A DNA stretch of 62,562 bases, counting the filler, from Rhabdomonas costata (taxonomy: Eukaryota): the NCBI GenBank assembly GCA_019059605.1. It is 29 parts of 29 records of this genome, joined end to end, with 100 filler letters (N's around TTAATTAATTAA, not from the genome) between each part and the next. Parts side by side here need not be neighbours in the genome. Positions count along the whole stretch, not along the records: positions 10,820 to 12,882 come from JAHMHO010005981.1; positions 12,983 to 15,043 come from JAHMHO010005982.1; 27 more parts are not named here. One strand, 5' to 3'. Below the pieces are notes generated by a model, which worked only from the letters and a program-made list of their open reading frames with translations, made no database searches and was not told where the DNA came from. Position 1 is the stretch's first letter; the number at the start of each line of letters is the position of its first letter. The translations under genes and the position numbers were made by a program. Of this stretch, positions 5,101-47,838 are shown in pieces.

Positions 5101-6583
5101 CGTTAGTTGCGCACTAGAGAGAAGAAAAGGAATGGTATGCTGAGTTACGCCGCTGCTAGCTGCTGCCCGATGAAGTCGTTGGGTCGGTAGGTCGCATGAA
5201 AACTGGCAGCTGAACAACGGAAATAGCAATCAAAAGCTCTGAGACAACGCACCGTCGACAAGGTAGAAAATAGTGTGCCAACGGGGTGGTGGTCGTAGGC
5301 AGCCTGACGGGCCGAAGGACAGGGGTTTAGTCCAGGCTTGACGCTTGACTGTGATAGCGTCTATGGTTTTCCTCAAGGACTCCCGGGGTCAATCCGGTGT
5401 GACGAGAAACACTCTGGCGTTGTCTTGGCAGATGTGATCCAAAAACAATGGATATGAGTGACCATGGGTGTTTATCGTAAAAAGCGACGTCCGGGTACTG
5501 TCCGGTCCAGATCACCCAGGTGTTCCACATCCAGAGAAAAAGGGGAAAAGTCACATGCGTGGGATACAGACATTTTCCAGAGGTATCCAGGGTGCCATTT
5601 TGTCAAGGGTCAGCTGAGACAGAAGTCGAATCTCGGCCCCTCGTGAGCCAGCTCCTGGCCAGGTCATGGGTCAGGCAATATATCAACCAGCTGGGCGAGA
5701 AGGCGAGCAGAGCAGGGCGAGGTGAGAGAGGGAAGGCCAGCAGAGAGACAGTGGGGAAGACCCAGGGCGAGGCAGAGAGCCAGGCCAAGGGAGGGAAGTC
5801 GCGTGGAAGGAGGTAGCCAGCACACGACCCGACCGCATTAGAAATCCACAGGGTGTGTTCCAGGGTTCCAGCGGAAGAAAGTTGCGTCCTCACCTTTCTC
5901 CCGAGTTTTCACAGGTCAGGCGGATTTCGAGATTTCGTCCTGACTACCCTGGTGCCCTTGAACGCTAAGAACTACGAGAATTACAGAGAGAGGTCCTTGA
6001 TTAGGTTTTTGTACATTGCGTGATTCCTTTAATGCGGAATTAAACCTAACAGGTCGCTTTTTGTTTGAATTTGTGTTGTGTTTCGCCTTTAATTGTGTTT
6101 TTGCAGAGGAGGTGCAGCAGAACCACAGCGGAACCGCAGGCGAGAGCCGCGGAGACCCGAGGCACCAGCAGAGGGAGAGGGTGGAAAAAGGGTGTGGCGT
6201 TAGTGCGGTGAACACAGGACAGGGTGTGTGCGTGCGGTCGCGTGCCCCTTCCACAGCCTTTCTTTGGGTGGGAGATTGGGGAAATGCATAAGCGGCGAGA
6301 CCCGCCCAGCGAAACCCCTCCACAGCCCAGAAGGTGTGGGCACCAAGGCCCGGCCAAGAGACCCCCCCACTGTGCCTAAAGCAGCCCTCACGANNNNNNN
6401 NNNNNNNNNNNNNNNNNNNNNNNNNNNNNNNNNNNNNTTAATTAATTAANNNNNNNNNNNNNNNNNNNNNNNNNNNNNNNNNNNNNNNNNNNNGTGTTGG
6501 GTGTGGTTGGTTGTGGTTTTCCGTGTTTGTATTCGTGCGGCCGCCCTGAGCCTTTGCCGATTCCTTTTTTGTCTTGTTGTCAG

Positions 6584-10819: not shown

Positions 10820-10946
10820 TACTTTTGCCGTTGGCCTGTGTTACTGCTTTATGTTTTTACGTGTTAAAAAACATATAAAAATATAATTAGTATAGATGCA
10901 ATTATATTATATATTTATAAAAATTGAAATTTAATTATATTGTAAT
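10820..10946. repeat. 127-bp exact direct repeat, copy 1 (copy 2 at 12735-12861)
   Basis: Base-by-base identity read from the sequence. Confidence 0.95.
10920..10927 (+). promoter_or_regulatory. AAAATTGA Mimiviridae-type early promoter motif for ORF A
   Basis: Exact octamer in AT-rich context, about 125 nt upstream of ATG 11053. Confidence 0.6.
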
Positions 10947-11052
10947 GTTTATAATCACATGTAATAGCACTGTAAGCGAGGATTCGATTTTGGCTTCTTG
11001 CTTTTGCTTACAACAGGCGATCGTCATCTGCTTTTTAACTAAGCATTCAACA

Positions 11053-11458
11053 ATGTCTCGCACTTACGTGATTTCCAGCCGCAATGGCGGAAAACAGAAT
11101 ATTGTTGTCACGGTCGGAGATGATGAAGAGCAAGTTCATGAGTATGAACTTGGCAGCGACACTGACACTGACACTGACAGTGAAAGCGAGAATGATGTAA
11201 GCGACAGTGGGAGCAGCCTGACCAACGAAGAAGACATATGTTTGGTTGAATTTCCCGATTGTTGCTCTGGTTGCTATTCTGACTACTGTCAGGACTGCAA
11301 CAATAGAGCTTTGCCTGATCTGCGGATGTTCTTGTTGTTCATCCGTTCCATGTGACGAATGCGCGCAGCTGAAGATCAATCGACAAATTGAGCAGGACAA
11401 ACTTGCTCTGGAACGAGCCCAGAATCGGCGAGCTCTCCGCGTTCTTTATTCGTTTTAA
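11053..11458 (+). CDS. Cassette ORF A: acidic tract, CxxC-rich region and predicted coiled coil; apparent +1 frameshift near 11300
   Basis: MSRTYVISS...DTDTDTDSESE...CSGCYSDYCQDC continues in the +1 frame as TIELCLICGCSCCSSVPCDECAQLKINRQIEQDKLALER; the unshifted frame stops at 11355. Confidence 0.65.
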
Positions 11459-11517
11459 AGCATGGAGATGCAAGCTCAAGAGGTTTCGCTGCACTGTACT
11501 CAGTATGAGCTTTGTAA

Positions 11518-11691
11518 TGTATATAGAGGAAGATTCTATACATTCTTCCCACGATTCGACTTTTTCGTTTGCCTTTGGCCTGCGCCGTGCTGCTGCCTGC
11601 TATGCTATTGCTACTGCTAGCTCTGCTGTGTGCTACTGCTACTGCAAGGACTTATGTTTTTGTGTGTTAAAGAACACATAAAATCATAAGT
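11518..11691 (+). terminator. Conserved 3' element of cassette A ending in a hairpin (11650-11691, loop AAAG)
   Basis: Homologous to 12181-12361; ACTTATGTTTTTGTGTGTT-aaag-AACACATAAAATCATAAGT. Confidence 0.65.
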
Positions 11692-11729
11692 TTTATTAAA
11701 AATTATACTTGTACATCATTTAATGTATA

Positions 11730-11737
11730 AAAATTGA
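11730..11737 (+). promoter_or_regulatory. AAAATTGA early promoter motif for ORF B
   Basis: Exact octamer about 85 nt upstream of ATG 11821. Confidence 0.6.
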
Positions 11738-11820
11738 AAAATAAGTTGTTTACATATCTCATAATTATAAACAATATCACTTGATGCTTTGGTTCGAAAC
11801 TTTGAATCAAAGCTTTGACA

Positions 11821-12117
11821 ATGCCGACGAACACAAATGAGTACATGCTAAACGTTGTTGAACCCACGGTTAACGAGCAGAAAGAAGTTGTAATCAACAA
11901 TGTTGCAGTAAAGCCTGGCGAGATGCCCGGCGAGAAGCCAGACGAGATGATCGTCGAAATGTCCGGCGAAATGTCCGGCGAGATGCCCGACGAGATGCTA
12001 GACGTGATGCCTGGCGAGAATTGCTTTTTGTGCGACAATGCAATGCAGCTCGTGGCCGAAAATACTTACTGCTGCGCCACGTGCGGAATCACGGCCCTTG
12101 TCGGTCCTGTATATTAG
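11821..12117 (+). CDS. Cassette ORF B: tetrapeptide (PGEM-like) repeats and a C-terminal zinc-ribbon-like motif
   Basis: KPGEMPGEKPDEMIVEMSGEMSGEMPDEMLDVMPGE followed by CFLC-x13-CATC. Confidence 0.7.
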   Translation: MPTNTNEYMLNVVEPTVNEQKEVVINNVAVKPGEMPGEKPDEMIVEMSGEMSGEMPDEMLDVMPGENCFLCDNAMQLVAENTYCCATCGITALVGPVY

Positions 12118-12180
12118 TTTGGACCAAGTATCGCGGTCAGTAAGTACTTTTGTAGTATGTACTGTATCTTGTAGACTTTC

Positions 12181-12361
12181 TGTATATAGAGGAAGAATAT
12201 ATATCATCTTCCCACGATTCGACTTTTTCTTTTTTGCCTTTGGCCTGTGCCGTGTCTTTGCTGTTCTGTGCCTCTGCTGCTCTGTGTGCCTCTGCGCGAC
12301 TGTGTGCTACTGCTAGAACTTATGTTTTTGTGTGTTATCTAACACATAAAAACAATAAGTT
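12181..12361 (+). terminator. Conserved 3' element of cassette B ending in a hairpin (12317-12361, loop ATCT)
   Basis: AACTTATGTTTTTGTGTGTT-atct-AACACATAAAAACAATAAGTT. Confidence 0.65.
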
Positions 12362-12484
12362 ATACAAAAAGTTGAAAATTGGTTACATTCTAAATCTCAT
12401 GAATACATTTAATAGCACTGAATCCGAGGATTCATTTTACATTCTTGGCTTTTTCGATCAACTTGCATTCTCAGTCACTGTGCA

Positions 12485-12715
12485 ATGTCGACTGATGCAA
12501 AGAACGACAAACCTTTGAGATGTTCTGTCTGTAATGTACAGACGTGTTCTACGTGCAAAATTTGCAAATGCAATTTCGACTATGAACAGCTCTGTCCCAA
12601 ATGCAAAAAAGAGTTCGACGAAATGGTACTGGAACTGGAAATGGAAATGGAAAAAATAAAATTAAGAAGAGAAAAGTGCATGGGAGAATACATCTCCAAA
12701 TACGGTAATCTGTAG
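12485..12715 (+). CDS. Cassette ORF C: Cys-rich protein with predicted coiled coil (76 aa)
   Basis: CSVC-x4-CSTCKICKC...CPKC followed by an E/K-rich helix; preceded by AAAAGTTGAAAATTGG at 12367-12382. Confidence 0.7.
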   Translation: MSTDAKNDKPLRCSVCNVQTCSTCKICKCNFDYEQLCPKCKKEFDEMVLELEMEMEKIKLRREKCMGEYISKYGNL

Positions 12716-12726
12716 TTGGCTTCGTA

Positions 12727-12801
12727 TCGACTTTTACTTTTGCCGTTGGCCTGTGTTACTGCTTTATGTTTTTACGTGTTAAAAAACATATAAAAATATA
12801 A
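12727..12801 (+). terminator. Shortened 3' element of cassette C with hairpin (12764-12801, loop AAAA)
   Basis: TCGACTTTT...TTTGCCGTTGGCCTG core followed by TTATGTTTTTACGTGTT-aaaa-AACATATAAAAATATAA. Confidence 0.55.
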
Positions 12802-14234
12802 TTAGTATAGATGCAATTATATTATATATTTATAAAAATTGAAATTTAATTATATTGTAATATGTTTTTTAACACGTAAAAANNNNNNNNNNNNNNNNNN
12901 NNNNNNNNNNNNNNNNNNNNNNNNNNTTAATTAATTAANNNNNNNNNNNNNNNNNNNNNNNNNNNNNNNNNNNNNNNNNNNNGTGGTTTGTGAATGAACA
13001 ATGAACATTTGATTGCTGAAGAGAGTGCACTCGGAGTAAAAGCCGTAGTTCTGAATCAAACCCCCGGCGATCCCACAGTCCAAACAAAAACAGCAGAAAA
13101 CACGGCAGAAACTCCAGAACTTTCCATCATCTGCTCAAACGGAATATATATTCCGATATCCCCAGTGCTCCTGGTCATCGCTGAGATATTCTTCTGAAAA
13201 GGCTCTCACCTGAAACGCACTCTCTTCAGCAATCAAATGTTCATTGTTCATTCACATTCTCTCCTGAAACGACGCAAATAACATAAACGGAAGGGCGGAC
13301 GGAGGAGGACCTGGCTAACGGCACGGGTCTCGTGGTTTCCTCGAAGCAATGTTATCCGAGCCGGATAGCTGTGCGGCCGCCCGACAGCATGCATGCAACA
13401 ATCGCGCCACTAAAAGGCAGTGCCAAATTTTCAGAGTGGTGGTTACTCTCGAAGTTCCACTCAAACCCACGCGCACAAGTGAAAGCAAGACAGCAGAAGG
13501 GGACTTCGTTAGTCAAAACAAACCGAAAAATGATTACACTGAGAAACAGCGACGCTGGCTAAACTCGTTACGGAATCTCGAAAAAAAAAAGTGCTGTTCG
13601 TAAAAGGCAATCGACATCACAACTTGCCTGGACTTCATCGAAAACAAACAGCAAGTTTAAAGCATACCGCAGCTTCAGACACAGCAGCAAGGAGATGGTC
13701 TCCACGCTGTTCACTCCACGATCGACAAAATCCTGTTAGCGTGTTCCCGCACATCACACCACCCTTGAAACACCCGCACAAGAATTAAATTTGGCAGATA
13801 ATGTTCGCATTTGCTATCAGCAAATCGGCAAAAGTTGCGGGTTAAAAAGACGCCCCGCGACATCCAACGACGGACTCTTTCAACCAGTGTGCCGAAATTA
13901 TCATATCCTATTGGCAGCGTGACCTGGATACGAAGAAGCACGCCCCAGAAATGAGAAGTTACTTTAATTGGCAAAAAAAAGCTTTCAACTTCCCTCTCTT
14001 TTCGCATTCGCCCATCCCACTGACCATCCGCATCAGCTGGGCAAAGCATGTACGCATGAATTGGGCAAAGCATGTACACGTAGCTGCCCTGCCATATCAC
14101 TGTGAAATTGAAACCAAAGTGAAAGAAGAAGCATTTTAGCAGTAGTATTTTGGCATTGGGGATAGCATTTTGGGCATTAGGGTGATGGTTGGGGGGAGGA
14201 AGGGAGGAGTGTGCAAGTGCGCAAGTTTGCAAAC

Positions 14235-38469: not shown

Positions 38470-39553
38470 CCAAAAAAAATTAGGCCGGACCGCCTGTCGA
38501 TTTTATCCGGAACACAATAATCCAGAATTTGTCCTGCTGTTGGAGAGGACATTCTTGTTTCTCGTTTTATATACATTTGCGGTTGCATTCACAATATACA
38601 GAGTTCGCTGCCTTTGCGGTGCTTCTCGTTGGGTTTTGCAGGTATGTCAACGGTGCGCTGATCGCTCAGTACAACTGGAGCGCTCCTGCTTTTGCAGCCA
38701 GTGCGTATTTTGTCATCTCAAAATACACCACTAGCTGGGACAACACCACCTTGCAGACGGCCTCCAGTCTGAATTTTCTCGGGTGACCCCCCACCCCCAA
38801 AACACACCCNNNNNNNNNNNNNNNNNNNNNNNNNNNNNNNNNNNNNNNNNNNNTTAATTAATTAANNNNNNNNNNNNNNNNNNNNNNNNNNNNNNNNNNN
38901 NNNNNNNNNTGTTGGGGGGGATCCCCAGCATGGGGTCGTCATGGGTCTCGGATTCGGGCCCAGGGCCCTTTTGGAGCTGCCTCTGGCGCCGCGCCGCGTG
39001 CTCCAGCTGCAGCGCCAGGAGCATCTCCTCCGGGCTGGCCGTGGTAGGCAAGGGGTACGTCTCAGCGTCCGCACCCTTTGGGCAAGTTGAGCGAGTGGTT
39101 GAGGGAGAACATTGAAGGCGGAATCATTGAAGCCTTCTGATGCGTTTTGCTTTTCGCATTCTGTTGTAAGGAAACCTTAACCAGGGTTTCCTCACAAACA
39201 GACGATCGCTTGGGAAATGTTGGAGAAACTTGAGGAGATCTTCGGGAAAACAAACACAAAAGTCTGGGCGGTCAAAAGCGAAATGGATAGTTTGCATCCA
39301 CGCGACCAAAACAACACAACACACACACGCACATGCGCGAACGCAAATGTAACGCCGTTGTTGGCTTCACCGCCAGGAGGCCGACTCCTTTGCTCGACCA
39401 GGCCGAAAGCACTGAATTCACACCAACATGATGCCCATTGCAATTCTGAAGTAAAACTATGCACCCGGAGCTGGCCCCACGAGTAGATGGATGAAATGAA
39501 TCTAAGAAATGAGCAGAAAACCAGAAGAATCCAGATATCCCAACAAAGGTAAC

Positions 39554-41306: not shown

Positions 41307-42439
41307 CTACCATACCCCGGAAGATGCGAAAGAGCGGTACACGGTGACGCGGGTTGCGCACGACAGCGACCCAAAGTCACTGGCGACGACGTTGACCAAT
41401 GAGCTTCGAGCGAAGGGGGAGGTCGGGGTTCAAGCTGTTGGGCCAGAAGCCGTGAACAATGCGGTGAAGGTGCGCGTGTGGGGAGATAATGATGGGATTG
41501 TTCTTCCAGTGCTTTCAGGGGAGTGAGAGGTGAGTCTCTTTTTATGAATGCCAACCCCTCCTGCCGCCCTTCCGCTTTTCACGCAGGCGATCTGCATTGC
41601 TCGGCGAATTGAGCAGGAGGTTGGGGGCTGTGAAGTGGGCTGTGTGCCTGACTTTGTGGGGATCCCCGGGCCAGACCCTTCGGAAGGGGAGTACACCGCA
41701 ATGCGGTGGACGCTTGCTGTGCGTCAGCGGGAGGCTGAAGTGCTCAACTGGTATGCAGGCTACTGACTTTTTCTTTTGTGGAGACACGCAGTTTGGTTAC
41801 TCTTTGAGAATGGGGTGTCCTGCAGGAAGCCCACTTTGGAGTTGATGAAGCCCCCTCTGGTGCACATCGAGCAGAGGGCGGAGGCCGGCGAGGTGAAGCT
41901 GGATGAGCTTCGGGTGGCGGGCTGGAGCGATCCTAGGATGGTTGGAGCAGCCGTGGCATCCCGAATGCACAAAGGAGAGAACGTGCGAATCACCGTTGTT
42001 GGTATGCATTTGGGTTTTTGTTTCCGTTGTGAGGTTTCACCGTGCTGGTTCTTCAAGCAGTTCACGATTTTTTTTTGGGCTGTTTCAGGCCCCGCCAGCG
42101 TGAACCAAACCATCAAGGCCTTGGCGGTTGCCCGTACCTATTTGGAGGAAAGCAAAGTGGACTTTGCGACGTTCCCTCGGTTTACAACCACTACGCTGGA
42201 AGGTTTGCTTTTTTCTAGGAGTTTGTTGAGTCACGTGGGGATGAGTGTCCGCTTTTTGAGAGCGTTTGCTTTTATTAGGCCCCGGAGCTGGCCAACCACG
42301 AGACATGTCAGCGGTGGAGCTTTACCTTTGCCCAAGCTGCTCCCCGAAGTTGGTTGGAAAGGAGATTGTGGAGTACCGAGTGGCGGTATGCTGTCAATTC
42401 CTGGTCGTTCCTGGGCAAGGAGGAGTAGACCATCTTTAA
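41307..42439 (+). CDS. Tandem SpoVS-domain protein; exons 41307-41469, 41587-41750, 41826-42001, 42089-42202, 42279 onward
   Basis: Two repeats, RVAHDSDPKSLA...VQAVGPEAVNNAVKAICIARR...GCVPDF and RVAGWSDPRMVGAAVA...VVGPASVNQTIKALAVARTY...TFPRF, resemble bacterial SpoVS (KVSAKSNPNSVAGA...QAIGAGALNQAVKAVAIARGF...CIPAF). Confidence 0.8.
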
Positions 42440-43009
42440 GGCCTCTTCCGCCGCCGTGAACTTCACCTGAAGGGCCAGCAAAAAAAAGAGAGATATGCAA
42501 ACTGTCACGTTGAACTCTGAACAGCTGACATTGAACTGAATTGATCCCTGAGCCCTCATTGAACTTTGAGGTCGGTGAAACCCTGCATGTGCGGTCGGCG
42601 GCGGCGGGGGGGGGGGATTTAGAGACCCGTGCTCACTTCTATTTTCTTATTTACCCCATCTTATTTTCCCCTAACCAGTTTCCAATCTTCCAAGTTTCCA
42701 AGTTTTGTGATGGCGGAGCCTTTCTCTCTTTTTTATCGACCTGATGCGCTGAGTTGATGTGGAAGACTGTCAACATCAATTAATAATCGAGGTACAGCAG
42801 TTGTTCAAGGTACAGCAGTTCAAAGAACAGAATTTAATTCCATTCCGATGCCACACCCGCTGAGGGCTACGCACCTCGGTGGGAGTATTCAGACGGACCC
42901 TCACCTTCAGCCCCGCGGGTAGATTTCTTTTCCCTCGGGTGACCTTGTCGCCACTGAAACGCGAGCTCCTCCGGGTAGTCCATCAGGGCTTCCTCCTCCT
43001 CGCTAATGC
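42308..43009 (-). CDS. Hypothetical convergent gene, last three exons (43009-42905, 42582-42503, 42466-42308)
   Basis: Three phase-compatible AG/GT-bounded exons ending in a stop codon; no family recognised. Confidence 0.45.
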
Positions 43010-45391
43010 CTGCGAAAGGCTACGCGACCCGGTGAAAAAAGACCTAAAACGCCCATACGGTCACGAAACCCGTTAGGAGGCGGTGCACGGCGGGTGTACG
43101 CTTCCATGCGATCACGGAACCCCAACCCCCNNNNNNNNNNNNNNNNNNNNNNNNNNNNNNNNNNNNNNNNNNNNTTAATTAATTAANNNNNNNNNNNNNN
43201 NNNNNNNNNNNNNNNNNNNNNNNNNNNNNNGGGGTGGGGTTGAGCGTCCGCTTCGTTGGGCCGGGGCGCCGAGCAGGGCTTGGGGCCAGCTGCCGCTGCC
43301 ACTTTGTTTTGTCTGCCTCGGCCTACTCCATCGCCATTCACCTGAAGGGTCCACTCTCGCCGGAGCTACTTCGCATGGTTTCCATCAATTTCTGCTCTGT
43401 GCGGCAAATCAAGGTGGATGGATCGCATGGGATGAAGCATGAAACATTTCTTGGCTTGGGGTGCAAGTACCAGCATGCAGCCGTTTCCTGCGCCTTAAGC
43501 CCCAACGGGATTTCATGCTTGGGAACGAAGCATGCCTATCCCCTCATTTATTTCTCACACTAACATATAAGATGATAACAATGCGTTAAGAGGGTTGCAC
43601 AAGTCTGGTGCAGACATGAACACAGGTGGCTGGGGACCTGCCTTTCCGCCAGGAACACTCTGAGGGTGGGAGAGGGGAGAGGGACAGAGGGCTTGGGATG
43701 GGTGTCGTCGAGCTGCTTGACCAGCCATTCAGATTTTTGAGAAACCCACTGCGAATGAAAGACCCAGCCCTGCTTGCCCCATCAATCAGCACAGGTGGTA
43801 GACGCCAAACCTAACCCATTGAACCCACACCAACGCTTTCGTACCGCACATCAACAACTGCAAACGCAGTGCATCAGCATCGGGTCAGCATCGGCCTTCT
43901 CCTGCAGCTGGTTCTCACACCATAAACTCCAAATCGTAGCAGACTTTACCCCTTGATCTCGGTCTTACACTTGCACGTGAATTGAATGGGTCACGCTCTT
44001 AAAATATGCGCCCCCCCCCATGATCAGCTCAAGATTGCGTCCGTTGGGCGGGGCGTATAATTGAGGTTCGCCAATGGGTTGGTGCACGCACACACACACA
44101 CACACAATGGCAGTTGAGTTAGACGTTCTGCTTCTCGCCCAGCCGCTCCGAGCGGGGGTGCTCCCCAGCCTAAGGGTCAATCCCAGTTCCCTCCAGAAGA
44201 GAGGTGGGGGTCACAATGGGGCTCACAATGGCGTAACGGAGACACGGGCGCTGAAACACAACTGTTCCAAAGCTGCAGGCGGAATGAGAGCTGACACATC
44301 CGCCGACCGTGAGCGACTGCTTTCGCACGACACCTCTAATTTGGAAGAGCGGGAACAACATACACGATGAGAGGAGAGAACACTCGCGGACCCAAGAACG
44401 AAAATCCAGACAATGTCACCACAAACTGCCCAAACTGACACCCAGTCAGACATATAGCAGAGCGCATTACACGAACCCTTCGTGTACCCTTCGTGTAGAC
44501 TATCGGGTAGGAACAAAAAACTTCATCACCAATATATGAACACGTTACCATTTATCTCATTTCTGGATGAAATCCATTGATTTCGTCTCATCTCGTTGTA
44601 TGCACTGGCTGTTGGAGAGAGAGAGTAAGAGAGAGATCGCATCCACCGCAAAACGATTTGCGTGTGCATTGGAGAGAGGGGGCACCTTTCCTCCGGTCAG
44701 CAGAGTCCGAGGCGAGGACGGCCGGCAGCGGGAGTACCTTGTCAAAGGAACAGTTCGGACGACTGCCGACCGCCAGGGCAGTGACCGCCCCCCTGCGCTC
44801 AGTGCACCATGGGGGGTCAGCAGGACGTGCGCGTAGACCGTGTCGTTGAGGCTCTTGACCTGGCATTCCAGTTGCAGAGCCAGCGAACGCAGACTATTTC
44901 ATGGCAAACCGATAAGGCTGAAGACTGCGTGTTGCTCAAGGCTCATCTTGAGGTTTTAGGGTCGATGAGCAGCAGTACACGTTGGAAGGTCAGCAACCAA
45001 GACGACCACCCATAAGCTTACGCCGCTGCTGTTCGCCCACTGGTTTGTTTCGCTGGCGATGCCCCATTTGGCTTGGTGTGCTCGCCACGCGTGCGGGTGC
45101 TTGGGAGCGACCAACAACAACCACAATTTAAGAACGGCCGTGAAGCGTATACAATCGGATAACTCCGGCCCCAACTCCGTATCCCCTACTCAAGTCTTCC
45201 TTTCCATTGCATTCAAACTCACCCGTAAAAAAACCACCCCACCCCTGGCTGTCTGGCTGTGTTCCGCCCGCAGCAAGCGACCCCCCCACAANNNNNNNNN
45301 NNNNNNNNNNNNNNNNNNNNNNNNNNNNNNNNNNNTTAATTAATTAANNNNNNNNNNNNNNNNNNNNNNNNNNNNNNNNNNNNNNNNNNNN

Positions 45392-46244
45392 AACTCTAGA
45401 GTTGAAAGAAGGATGAGAAGCGTGTACACCTTGAAAACCTCTGAGAGATCTTTCTTTTGTTTTCAAAACCCCATGGAAGCCCTCCAAAATGTTGATGTGT
45501 ACCTTTCCCACCTTTTTATGATCACAAAGTGCTGAGAGTGATTTGCAGTGTCGTGTATGTAATACGAAGAGAAGAAAGTCGTGAGTAGCCATTCCATAAG
45601 TCTGTCTGGATAGAGCAGTTTCCTTGAACATGTTTCTGTATATTTGAAGCAAGCGCGACAAATGAGCGATCAGTAACCACGTCAGCCATTAGTCTCTTAG
45701 CCACTCTTCCGCCAATGGACTCGTCGACATCCAAGATTGTCTGGATCCAAGCTACGCCATCTTTGCGTTGTTGTCGACCTTTGTTGTACTTGTGCTTGCC
45801 AATGGCGGCCTCGTCAGCATCGAAGAGTCCGAACAAGCGCTCTTGGGTAGCTTCTGAAAGAGAGTAATATAGTAATTAGCCCTGTTGGGATCCGTCCCGC
45901 CGGACACGTTCACCCCGCATAGGTCACTAGGGGACACGTTCAAAGTCTCCTAACCCCATGCGAGATACAATACTTTTGTTCTAATAATAAGGGCACATAC
46001 GCTCAGGAAGAACAGTCTCTATGCATATCTTGATCACCTTGGTGACAGTGTGCTTTTATAAACGACATTGCTGGAGAATCTGAGACGGGTAGAACTCATA
46101 ACACCACATGTAGGTTGCCTTCAGAACTGAGTAGCAGTCTTTTAATCTTTTCAGAAAGCAGTCGTCGGTCACCACCTCCACAGTCTTGCAGCAATTTCGA
46201 GAAGTGCAACTCCAGTGCCAGGGCATGGGGGCACATATCATCAT
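45392..46244 (-). pseudogene. Decayed Merlin / IS1595(ISXO2)-like DDE transposase
   Basis: DADEAAIGKHKYNKG, VTDRS, IQKHV..NCSIQTDLWNGY, DHKK and VHINILEGFHGVLK motifs, interrupted by a frameshift and stops. Confidence 0.85.
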
Positions 46245-47838
46245 CGAAGAACCGTGGCAAGAAGGGGGCCATGCAAAAGACCAGCATCAACCAGATCATG
46301 GACAAAGGCCAATTCGTCGCCCTTGTAGTGAGCTCCGATGTCGTCGTGAGTGAGATCAAAAAGAGTTCCATTTTTTGTGTAGAGAACTCCAAAAACATAA
46401 CAAAAACACCATGCGTGAAGATTTCTTACCTCGGGAAGATTTCTTATCTGACCAGAATTTTATGACAGAGCTGGCATTTTCAGCGAGAACTACCTGTTCC
46501 GTTGGAATTTCTCTGCGTTGGCATGAGTATAAACTCTGCAGATTGTAGGCAATATGGATCTCGTAGATGTGAGCGAGGGAAACGTGTCAAGACAGCGGTA
46601 GAGCTTGTGGAGCGCTAATGTGCTTTTGTTGCGTGGTGCGTGTTCAGCAGCTCAGGTGGATGGTAGATTTGTCCACTGCAGAGTAAGGCGCTGGCTGCGC
46701 GTTTTGTGGGAGTTGTCTTTCAAGGGTATGTTCTGCTTTGGTGAATGGTTTGTTTATGTTTCTTGTATGGCGCATCGTCTGCACTTTTTCAAGGTTGTGA
46801 AAAGAAGTGGGTGTTGTGGTAAAATGTGGAGTCAAATGTAACGTTTGTATGATAAACTTGGACTCGGTTCATTTAATTTTTATTCACTTTAATACAAAAC
46901 AGTTTTAGAAAAGGATGCAACAAATTAATTAGGATTGTTTAGCGCTAAAAAGACAGGACGTTTTTACTTACAAGTGACATTTAAAGATGGATAATGGTTG
47001 GATATGCATTTGAACGTTTGATTTGGGGTCTAATCTCTTCTGCATATTTCTTTTATACATATTCATAGAAGAATTGTTCTCCAAGTCTCTTTTGTCGTAA
47101 AGCTTTCCCAGTGGTTACAATTGATATCTGAGCTGGTTCCTTCATTAAAACTCGTTGTTTTGACTTTTGTTTCTTTTTGTGTTACTAGATATGGATTATC
47201 GTTGCATTGAATGCTTCGGAAATATCTTTTATTTTTATTCCTCCGTTTTATTACTGCGTCATCCAATTGAACCATTTATTTCAATACACTCCTCTGCGCA
47301 TTTCCTGAAGAACTTCAAACTGCTGTCATCGTGTTCAACCAAGAGGCACCGTTTGCGCGGCTATCAACGTCTCCTTACTGGAGGAAAATAAAAATAAAAG
47401 ATATTTCCGAAGCATTCAATGCAACGATAATCCATATCTAGTAACACAAAACANNNNNNNNNNNNNNNNNNNNNNNNNNNNNNNNNNNNNNNNNNNNTTA
47501 ATTAATTAANNNNNNNNNNNNNNNNNNNNNNNNNNNNNNNNNNNNNNNNNNNNTAGGGGTTGGTGGGGGGGGGGGGGTTGCCCTGTGGATTGCTGTGCCC
47601 TTTCCATCCAGTGTAAATCTCGTTCACCCTCTCTCCTCCGTGGTTTCTTCTTTTCACTTTGACGATGGGATATGATGTCGATGGATGCAGCACTATGATT
47701 GGGAGGGTGGATGAAAGGAGGAGTTTTTGCTTTTAGCCTGATGAGCGGGTGGGATTGGGGATGCCTTTGAGCTATTGCCGTAAAGCAGCAGCCAGTCCCC
47801 TATGGATGTGGGCGCCTCCCTCTGTTGCTGTGGAATAG

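Follow-up and report, generated by a model that had tools for sequence, protein, structure and literature searches.

A 1.9-kb repeat unit with three putative giant-virus-like expression modules in a Rhabdomonas costata assembly: a candidate viral ORFan gene array or mini-episome

One contig of 2063 bp in the Rhabdomonas costata assembly GCA_019059605.1 (JAHMHO010005981.1; positions 10820-12882 of the stretch analysed here) carries three small open reading frames (ORFs), each behind its own promoter-like motif and ahead of its own hairpin, and this raises the question of where such a compact array comes from in the DNA of a sampled eukaryotic cell. The whole stretch, hereafter the window, comprises 62,562 bases and is not a single locus, as it joins 29 contigs of 2048-2067 bp, arranged by length, with N spacers (TTAATTAATTAA) between them; the description of the element rests on the one contig. 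Our tentative answer, to which we assign a probability of roughly 45%, is that a nucleocytoplasmic large DNA virus is the source, and that the contig represents an array of its quickly evolving ORFan genes or a small episome that stems from it, in tandem or excised form. At present it is a lone orphan contig from an amplified assembly.

Three modules of one layout in a 1915-bp unit

The longest exactly recurring prefix of the contig was 127 bp, giving a repeat unit of 1915 bp, and no other contig among the 29 displayed a recurring prefix. Within this unit, a family of 50-nt repeats marked three modules (A, B, and C) with a spacing of 803, 668, and 444 bp, and all three shared one layout, i.e., an AT-rich island with a motif, a small Cys-rich ORF, a conserved 3' block, and a strong hairpin. 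An earlier reading made from the DNA alone (the sequence-only reading) had proposed modules of about 800, 670, and 445 bp whose non-coding blocks were homologous at the DNA level while the ORFs were not, and measurement bore out both points. With 200 shuffles for each comparison, the 3' blocks of A and B matched at 79% over 191 columns (z 70), and those of A and C and of B and C gave z scores of 12 and 10, respectively. The 5' regions of A and C matched at 76% over 89 columns (z 16), and that of B was weakly similar to the others (z 2-3). No similarity was observed when the ORFs were compared pairwise as DNA (z -1.1 to 0.4). The features of the contig were as follows.

10820-12882, + strand: whole contig, made up of the 1915-bp unit, the 127-bp overlap, and a 21-nt fold-back tail
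10820-10946, + strand: 127-bp stretch recurring exactly at 12735-12861, read as a cycle-closing assembly-graph vertex
10866-10950, + strand: AT-rich island A, G+C 0.09, with AAAATTGA at 10920-10927, 133 nt before the ORF1 ATG
10958-11052, + strand: 5' leader A, homologous to leader C
11053-11355, + strand: first frame of ORF1 (ORF1a), with an acidic low-complexity N-terminal part, then C-x2-C-x4-C-x2-C; early stop from a frame change
11294-11458, + strand: second frame of ORF1 (ORF1b, +1 relative to the first), with I-C-x-C-x7-C-x2-C and a helix-like tail; TAA at 11456-11458
11518-11700, + strand: conserved 3' block A, with a small hairpin at 11528-11549, a large hairpin at 11647-11694, and a CTG-rich, A-poor tract
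11676-11765, + strand: AT-rich island B, G+C 0.16, with AAAATTGA at 11730-11737, 91 nt before the ORF2 ATG
11821-12117, + strand: ORF2, 98 aa, with in-frame 12-nt repeats (PGEM/SGEM-like), then C-x2-C-x13-CC-x2-C
12181-12365, + strand: conserved 3' block B, with a small hairpin at 12191-12212 and a large hairpin at 12317-12361
12345-12405, + strand: AT-rich island C, G+C 0.21, with the variant AAAGTTGA at 12368-12375, 117 nt before the ORF3 ATG
12485-12715, + strand: ORF3, 76 aa, with an eight-Cys knuckle region, then a long helix (residues 38-73 in the model)
12716-12810, + strand: short 3' block C, with a hairpin at 12757-12807 (the same sequence as 10842-10892), continuing into island A
12862-12882, + strand: fold-back tail, the reverse complement of 12769-12789

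In Mimiviridae, as described, early genes are recognised by the octamer AAAATTGA lying no more than 150 nt upstream of their ATG, transcripts terminate at palindromes able to form hairpins, and the pair of promoter and hairpin is listed as a hallmark of the family (PMC6163669, PMC3542560, PMC4402537). We used windows of 150 nt for both the motif and the downstream hairpin, following PMC3542560. All three motifs fell inside this window, at 133, 91, and 117 nt from the ATG, with exact AAAATTGA in two of the three modules and AAAGTTGA in the third. The independent occurrences of the exact motif were those at 10920 and 11730, a further copy at 12835 being an assembler duplicate. The islands that hold the motifs were 60-90 nt long with a G+C of 0.09-0.21, and each was located between a large hairpin and the next leader. 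Islands of this kind (G+C at most about 0.20) occurred three times per unit, and one small island was observed in each of two of the 28 other contigs. The motif columns formed an invariant core inside otherwise variable islands, and, counting both strands, two exact copies of AAAATTGA per 1.9 kb compared with two in the remaining 58,035 nt.

The large hairpins at 11647-11694 and 12317-12361 had folding energies of -21.3 and -20.9 kcal/mol (z -5.6 and -5.7), and in both cases none of 200 shuffles was as good; for the hairpin at 12757-12807 the energy was -14.1 kcal/mol (z -3.5), with two of 200 shuffles as good. Between modules the stems of these hairpins were conserved and the 4-nt loops varied. 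Modules A and B also carry a small hairpin, GGAAGA-N10-TCTTCC, with invariant stems and variable loops, which on its own was no better than shuffles (z 0.4-0.5). From the stop codon to the large hairpin, the distance is about 189, 200, and 42 nt, so that one of the three lies inside 150 nt. In modules A and B, a conserved 3' block of about 190 nt separates the stop codon from the large hairpin, and we know of no counterpart to such a long conserved block in the hairpin rule. Block A holds an exact 23-mer (11544-11566) in common with block B. It was considered whether the 3' block is a coding C-terminal exon, but this was dropped, as A and B differ by a 2-nt indel that puts them out of frame with each other, indicating that the conservation is at the DNA level. 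Between the core of the 3' block and the large hairpin, modules A and B show an A-poor, CTG/TGC-rich tract of about 60-80 nt (11570-11646 and 12235-12316), in which short internal repeats were seen.

The leaders of modules A (10945-11052) and C (12399-12518) open with an upstream ATG, and the peptides read from it are alike (NST-x-SEDS...IL). In module A this frame runs stop-free into ORF1, and in module C it overlaps ORF3 out of frame. These leader frames may represent an N-terminal extension, an upstream ORF, or DNA-level conservation alone.

The same signals have been described in other large DNA viruses. The hairpin rule holds for Pithovirus too (PMC4402537), and AAAATTGA is found upstream of 44% of pacmanvirus genes and is reported in African swine fever virus (ASFV) and some iridoviruses (PMC11788076). 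In invertebrate iridescent virus 6 (IIV-6), the motif is located at -19 to -2 of a transcription start (PMC5294985), and in the algal virus PgV (Phaeocystis globosa virus) AAAATTGA is given as the early core, common to the virus and its polinton-like parasite (bioRxiv 10.1101/2022.07.28.501842). Its presence in pacmanvirus, ASFV, and some iridoviruses means that the motif is not specific to Mimiviridae. The sequence-only reading had taken the motif and hairpins for Mimiviridae signals; what stood of this was a motif within 150 nt upstream of each ATG and a strong hairpin after each ORF, while the family assignment was weakened by the wider occurrence of the motif and by two of the three hairpins lying more than 150 nt from the stop. 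Its description of the modules as three self-contained expression units fits the layout, since each has a motif and a hairpin of its own and may, by analogy, be expressed as one. The conservation of the motif in variable islands, together with its density, adds weight to the viral analogy, and we regard the likeness to giant-virus expression signals as suggestive, not strong.

The contig also differed from its neighbours, as had been noted before. Its G+C of 0.388 was the lowest of the 29, compared to 0.402-0.561 for the others. Among the 28 other contigs, 16 had a 5' end in which at least 11 of 12 bases were G/T and 20 had a 3' end in which at least 11 of 12 were C/A; the corresponding counts in the target were 8/12 and 10/12, i.e., it is without the G/T- and C/A-type primer-like ends. 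Together, the lowest G+C, the AT-rich islands, and the lack of primer-like ends suggest a composition foreign to the neighbours.

Predicted proteins and the search for relatives

An acidic low-complexity stretch and CxxC knuckles occur together in each of the three proteins, the acidic stretch of ORF2 being formed by the in-frame 12-nt repeats. ORF1 is interrupted by a frame break located between about 11301 and 11309. When it was read across this break, its eight-Cys spacing was identical to that of ORF3 residues 13-40, and a helix followed. The alignment of ORF1b with ORF3 gave a z score of 3.9, which was reached by two of 500 shuffles, and BLASTP returned an E value of 0.039. Because the eight-cysteine spacing is common to both, ORF1 and ORF3 are, judged by their sequences, distant and diverged paralogues, with a paralogy that is weak but present. 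The C-terminal end of ORF2 differs, being of a four-Cys, ribbon-like type. A structure model of ORF3 reached a predicted local distance difference test (pLDDT) score of 84.7 and displayed short knuckles followed by the helix at residues 38-73; the ORF2 model was poor (pLDDT 59), with values >70 in the C-terminal strands alone. Most likely, the three ORFs encode small ORFan proteins of a predicted zinc-knuckle or zinc-binding type. The ORF1 frame break and the cysteine spacing common to ORF1 and ORF3 go beyond what the sequence-only reading had noticed, as does the 21-nt fold-back tail.

The + strand carries four ORFs of at least 75 aa that start with ATG, and the - strand none; at least three such ORFs on one strand were obtained in 11 of 1000 first-order Markov simulations of the unit. 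The fourth, at 12038-12316, runs across parts of both ORF2 and block B and is probably not a gene. The G+C of the ORFs was 0.38-0.52, compared to 0.09-0.21 in the islands, and at third codon positions it was 0.43-0.65; the ORFs of neighbouring contigs had a G+C of 0.49-0.63. The ATG contexts are of the ACAATG and GCAATG kind, and on direct reading Shine-Dalgarno sequences are absent. Bacterial promoter and terminator signals were considered and dropped, as seven sigma-70-like sites were counted against 5.7 expected, with no terminator-like site. The lack of Shine-Dalgarno sequences and terminators, with sigma-70-like sites at expectation, argues that the element is not bacterial.

Searches at the protein level returned no relatives. 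Pfam gave nothing above threshold in four reading frames of the contig, and no replication, capsid, or recombinase domain was detected, in agreement with the claim that such genes are lacking. Viral hallmark genes (major capsid protein, PolB, VLTF3, A32, and viral RNA polymerase) were likewise absent from the contig. A word-based search of 5.8 billion clusters, which covered near lengths only, found no match for ORF3, ORF2, or the alignment of ORF3 with ORF1b, and when ORF3 was run exhaustively with phmmer on 1.84 billion representatives, the single match was a repetitive 530-aa protein that was judged spurious. In the ESM Atlas, the best score was 0.85, below the lead level of 0.9. Against PDB sequences, ORF3 matched LIM or CTCF zinc-finger patterns alone (E 0.19-0.74) and ORF2 gave a low-complexity match alone. 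Foldseek with the ORF3 model found no match with E <= 0.001 in either PDB or BFVD (three and 59 rows with E <= 10, respectively), and a protein-guided locus search of IMG/VR with ORF3, ORF2, and ORF1a found none.

At the DNA level, the exact 23-mer of the 3' block was absent from IMG/VR and from GTDB (one genome per prokaryote species), the 5' leader pattern had no match in IMG/VR, and blastn against phage and plasmid collections gave no match. A gapped block pattern built from the three modules matched one IMG/VR locus and 22 metagenome loci, all of which were put down to chance, being G+C-rich or without wider blastn similarity. An 18-mer from the hairpin arm matched 10 IMG/VR loci, six of them AT-rich with many copies of AAAATTGA; in the two of these six that were inspected (L030 and L031) the 18-mer lies within apparent coding sequence and the palindrome is absent, and L029, from the other four loci, was inspected too. 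As none of the 10 displayed wider blastn similarity, they were rejected as relatives and taken as chance, and IMG/VR thus yielded no locus homologous to the target. The expectation that the 3' block would reveal additional cassettes in giant-virus and metagenome sets was not borne out, since no match in IMG/VR or the metagenomes had wider similarity. Five of the AT-rich loci (L026, L027, L030, L031, and L032) have a G+C of 0.26-0.28, come from parent contigs of 21-232 kb, and hold 4-13 copies of AAAATTGA per 9-15 kb. They are presumably Mimiviridae-like and have nothing but a chance 18-20-mer in common with the target.

Small circles of other kinds carry marks of their own. CRESS-DNA (circular Rep-encoding single-stranded DNA) or nanovirus-like circles have a stem-loop with the nonanucleotide NANTATTAC, and kinetoplast minicircles have the universal minicircle sequence GGGGTTGGTGTA. 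Neither of the two window matches of the nonanucleotide fell in the contig, nor did any of the 12 window matches (<=2 mismatches) of the universal minicircle sequence, which is like conserved sequence block 3 (CSB-3). With both motifs absent from the contig, a circle of the CRESS or kinetoplast type was rejected. In the window, no Rfam family and no tRNA was found.

Closure of the unit, proposed mechanism, and rival explanations

The exact recurrence of the first 127 bp, as claimed in the sequence-only reading, was confirmed, and its caution that 127 is an assembler k-mer size fits the length of the overlap. A k of 127 is a common maximum for assemblers, and the overlap looks as it would if a k=127 de Bruijn graph contained a cycle, in which the 127-mer would be a branching vertex with a short dead-end tip attached. 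Read as the vertex of a cycle, it means that the join from module C to module A was assembled from reads. Since the size of the overlap is fixed by the assembler, it gives no information on whether the unit is a circle or a tandem array.

The tail extends a larger fold-back, whose arms are the 36 nt at 12847-12882 and positions 12769-12804 (94% complementarity), 42 nt apart (-35.4 kcal/mol, z -7.3). Terminal inverted repeats were also seen in three of the 28 other contigs, all host-like (12989-13028/13217-13256, 15144-15205/15319-15380, and 47175-47239/47387-47451). They are perfect or near-perfect, 40-65 nt long, located at one end, with 113-188 nt between the arms, and are probably amplification fold-back chimeras. 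Fold-backs at the ends of three of 28 other contigs point to a property of the library, and the 21-nt tail is therefore most simply read as a chimera of the same kind; from its sequence, it is probably an amplification chimera. A hairpin telomere at the contig end was considered and dropped, because host-like contigs end in similar fold-backs.

If the contig is a viral ORFan array or an episome derived from one, the following course of events could be proposed. A virus, or its small episome, would have been present in the sampled eukaryotic cell, and the assembled contig would represent a short multi-copy region, either a tandem array or a circle excised from the array, in which small ORFan proteins of the zinc-knuckle kind are encoded by three expression units that are paralogous and diverge fast. 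Each unit would be transcribed alone by the viral early transcription machinery from the AAAATTGA-type core in its 60-90-nt AT-rich island, with transcription starting, by analogy, about 10-20 nt past the motif. The resulting mRNA would consist of a leader of 70-110 nt and one small ORF, and would be terminated or processed at the large AT-rich hairpin. The units would have arisen by duplication, their coding parts having diverged past DNA alignment, while the promoter, leader, and 3' blocks would have been held alike by selection, gene conversion between units, or both. The mosaic pattern of similarity, in which the 5' region of A resembles that of C and the 3' block of A resembles that of B, points to exchange between units.

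The nearest precedent is, by description, the 2-kb episome of pacmanvirus lostcity (PLE), an unconnected contig of low copy number with three paralogous ORFs of unknown function, each behind AAAATTGA (PMC11788076). Homologous copies of PLE are described as integrated in two related viral genomes, with homologues in strains A23 and S19, and in its authors' view it left the viral genome by excision from a region that is unstable and evolves fast (PMC11788076). Both elements are about 2 kb long, with three small ORFs, the AAAATTGA motif, and no replication gene, and the small ORFs of PLE are paralogous (PMC11788076); the target has its 1915-bp unit, three ORFs, two exact motifs and one variant, and the weak paralogy of ORF1 and ORF3. 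They differ in that the described terminator of PLE is a T-rich motif whereas the target uses hairpins, in that the PLE paralogues are 25-42% identical whereas the target retains the Cys pattern alone, and in that the episomal state of PLE was shown by gel and reads whereas the target is known from one contig (PMC11788076). No sequence relation between the two was found, on the basis of the exhaustive ORF3 search, which gave no true homologue, rather than of a direct comparison with PLE.

Compared with Mimiviridae units, the target shares the motif within 150 nt upstream of the ATG and an AT-rich palindromic hairpin after each ORF, with stems kept and loops varying. It differs in a coding G+C much above that of known family members, in two hairpins about 190-200 nt after the stop, and in the lack of a linked marker gene. 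Transpovirons, virophages, and polinton-like viruses (PLVs) are, like the target, small DNAs with the early motif of their helper and with small zinc-finger-type proteins (PMC11788076; bioRxiv 10.1101/2022.07.28.501842). As described there, however, transpovirons are linear, about 7 kb long, and have terminal inverted repeats and a helicase, and virophages and PLVs are 17-20 kb long with capsid genes (PMC11788076; bioRxiv 10.1101/2022.07.28.501842). With a 1.9-kb unit, no helicase, and the 21-36-nt fold-back tail as its sole terminal inverted repeat, the target was rejected as a transpoviron, and the absence of capsid genes excluded a virophage or PLV.

Several observations weigh against a viral array. 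Mimiviridae genomes are given as >70% A+T (PMC4402537), and the contig, at 61% A+T with ORFs at 48-62%, falls short of this; the third-position G+C of 0.43-0.65 is likewise far from such AT-richness, and the G+C of its ORFs is not far under that of the neighbours' ORFs. Two of the three large hairpins start past the 150-nt window used in PMC3542560. The chance probability of at least one AAAATTGA on the + strand of the unit was 0.19, and 0.046 within the islands alone, and because the motif copies are paralogous and stem from one ancestral block, they carry about the weight of a single event rather than of independent ones. ORF1 has a frame break, no viral hallmark gene is present on the contig, and the viral, metagenome, phage, plasmid, and prokaryote collections yielded neither a homologue of the ORFs nor a relative of the blocks.

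Some of these points suit the view that the contig belongs to the nuclear genome of the sampled eukaryote itself, as a tandem gene family that resembles a macrosatellite and encodes small Cys-rich proteins, with a merely coincidental resemblance to viral signals. The G+C of the ORFs overlaps the low end of the neighbours' range, the motif could have arisen by chance in AT-rich spacers with the probabilities just given, viral genes are not linked to it on the contig, and tandem satellites likewise give cycles in assembly graphs. Yet the 28 other contigs have hardly any comparable AT-rich islands, conservation within the islands is highest at the motif, and every 3' end has a strong hairpin. Three units per 1.9 kb are also denser than the neighbours, where long open frames are sparse (13 stop-to-stop frames of at least 200 aa across the whole window), and we consider a host gene family unlikely. 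A small plasmid, organellar or otherwise, or an artefact of assembly from a collapsed and misjoined repeat, would account for the small size, the AT-rich stretches, and the k-mer-sized overlap, and chimeric fold-backs do occur in this assembly. To this explanation we give a slim chance, given that no tRNA, Rfam family, or organelle gene was found, that none of the loose matches of the kinetoplast CSB-3-like motif falls in the contig, and that the modules are 75-84% alike with no exact 127-mer common to different modules, which leaves the graph no route by which separate molecules could have been fused through the modules.

That the contig is a free circular episome or satellite of 1.9 kb without a replication gene, copied and transcribed by a helper giant virus, would agree with the exact 127-bp self-closure, with the lack of any assembled flanking sequence, with the chimera-like 21-nt tail being the sole branch seen, and with a precedent of equal size and layout (PMC11788076). 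A tandem array yields an identical graph cycle, however, no origin-like feature was identified in the contig, judged by the absence of the CRESS nonanucleotide, and the episome of the precedent is described as a rare by-product of a genomic region (PMC11788076), which leaves a free circle distinctly unlikely. A fuller version of this scenario, which we find quite improbable, is a 1.9-kb circular satellite without replication, capsid, or recombinase gene that depends on a giant virus within the cell of an alga or another protist. The early transcription machinery of the helper would switch on its three genes, and the conserved 3' blocks with their hairpins would serve both as mRNA 3'-end signals and as sites for copying or recombination of the circle. 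Hardly credible is an integron-like array, in which unrelated, exchangeable cargoes would be moved by site-specific recombination at the conserved blocks. The likeness lies in short modules with a conserved structured element 3' of a variable ORF, in conserved flanks around ORFs that cannot be aligned as DNA, and in the mosaic similarity of 5' and 3' blocks between modules. Integrons have an integrase gene and promoterless cassettes bounded by recombination sites; here, Pfam detected no recombinase or integrase in the contig frames, every module has a promoter-like island of its own, and the context is of a eukaryote or virus type without Shine-Dalgarno sequences. In addition, the eight-cysteine spacing makes at least two of the cargoes paralogous, and no additional cassette was found in the collections searched. 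The target was thus rejected as an integron, and with it went the earlier suggestion of interchangeable cargo, ORF1 and ORF3 being, in all appearance, diverged copies of one gene.

If both the viral link and a free circle were true, the contig would be a second, unrelated, very small gene-bearing giant-virus episome after PLE, and it would suggest that mini-episomes arise generally from unstable ORFan arrays of large DNA viruses, as their by-products or their parasites. It would also be a compact natural case of coding sequence that has become almost unrecognisable between conserved promoter, leader, and 3' hairpin blocks, and would offer a handy system for studies of early promoters and of hairpin-dependent 3'-end formation. 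Under the circular satellite reading, it would be the smallest known member of the giant-virus mobilome.

The neighbouring contigs

The G/T starts and C/A ends of the other contigs (examples are found at 6494-6523, 43231-43260, and 38780-38809) look, from the ends alone, like leftovers of degenerate G/T amplification primers. As primer remnants, they would make the contig ends in this assembly non-genomic sequence.

The neighbouring contigs carry eukaryote-type genes, e.g., one encoding a GDP-fucose O-fucosyltransferase domain, for which the closest Atlas clusters are mainly from Chlorophyta and Haptophyta. Surprising amid eukaryote-like contigs was an open frame at 41767-42456 (+ strand) with a match to the SpoVS domain (E 4.4e-13), which could be a bacterial contaminant or a transferred gene. 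Finally, a weak match to an ISXO2-like (IS1595) transposase was observed at 45525-45836 (- strand), with an E value of 2.2e-4 and 21.7 bits against a Pfam cut-off of 27; the contig that holds it (45392-47453, G+C 0.423) is one of two other low-G+C contigs.

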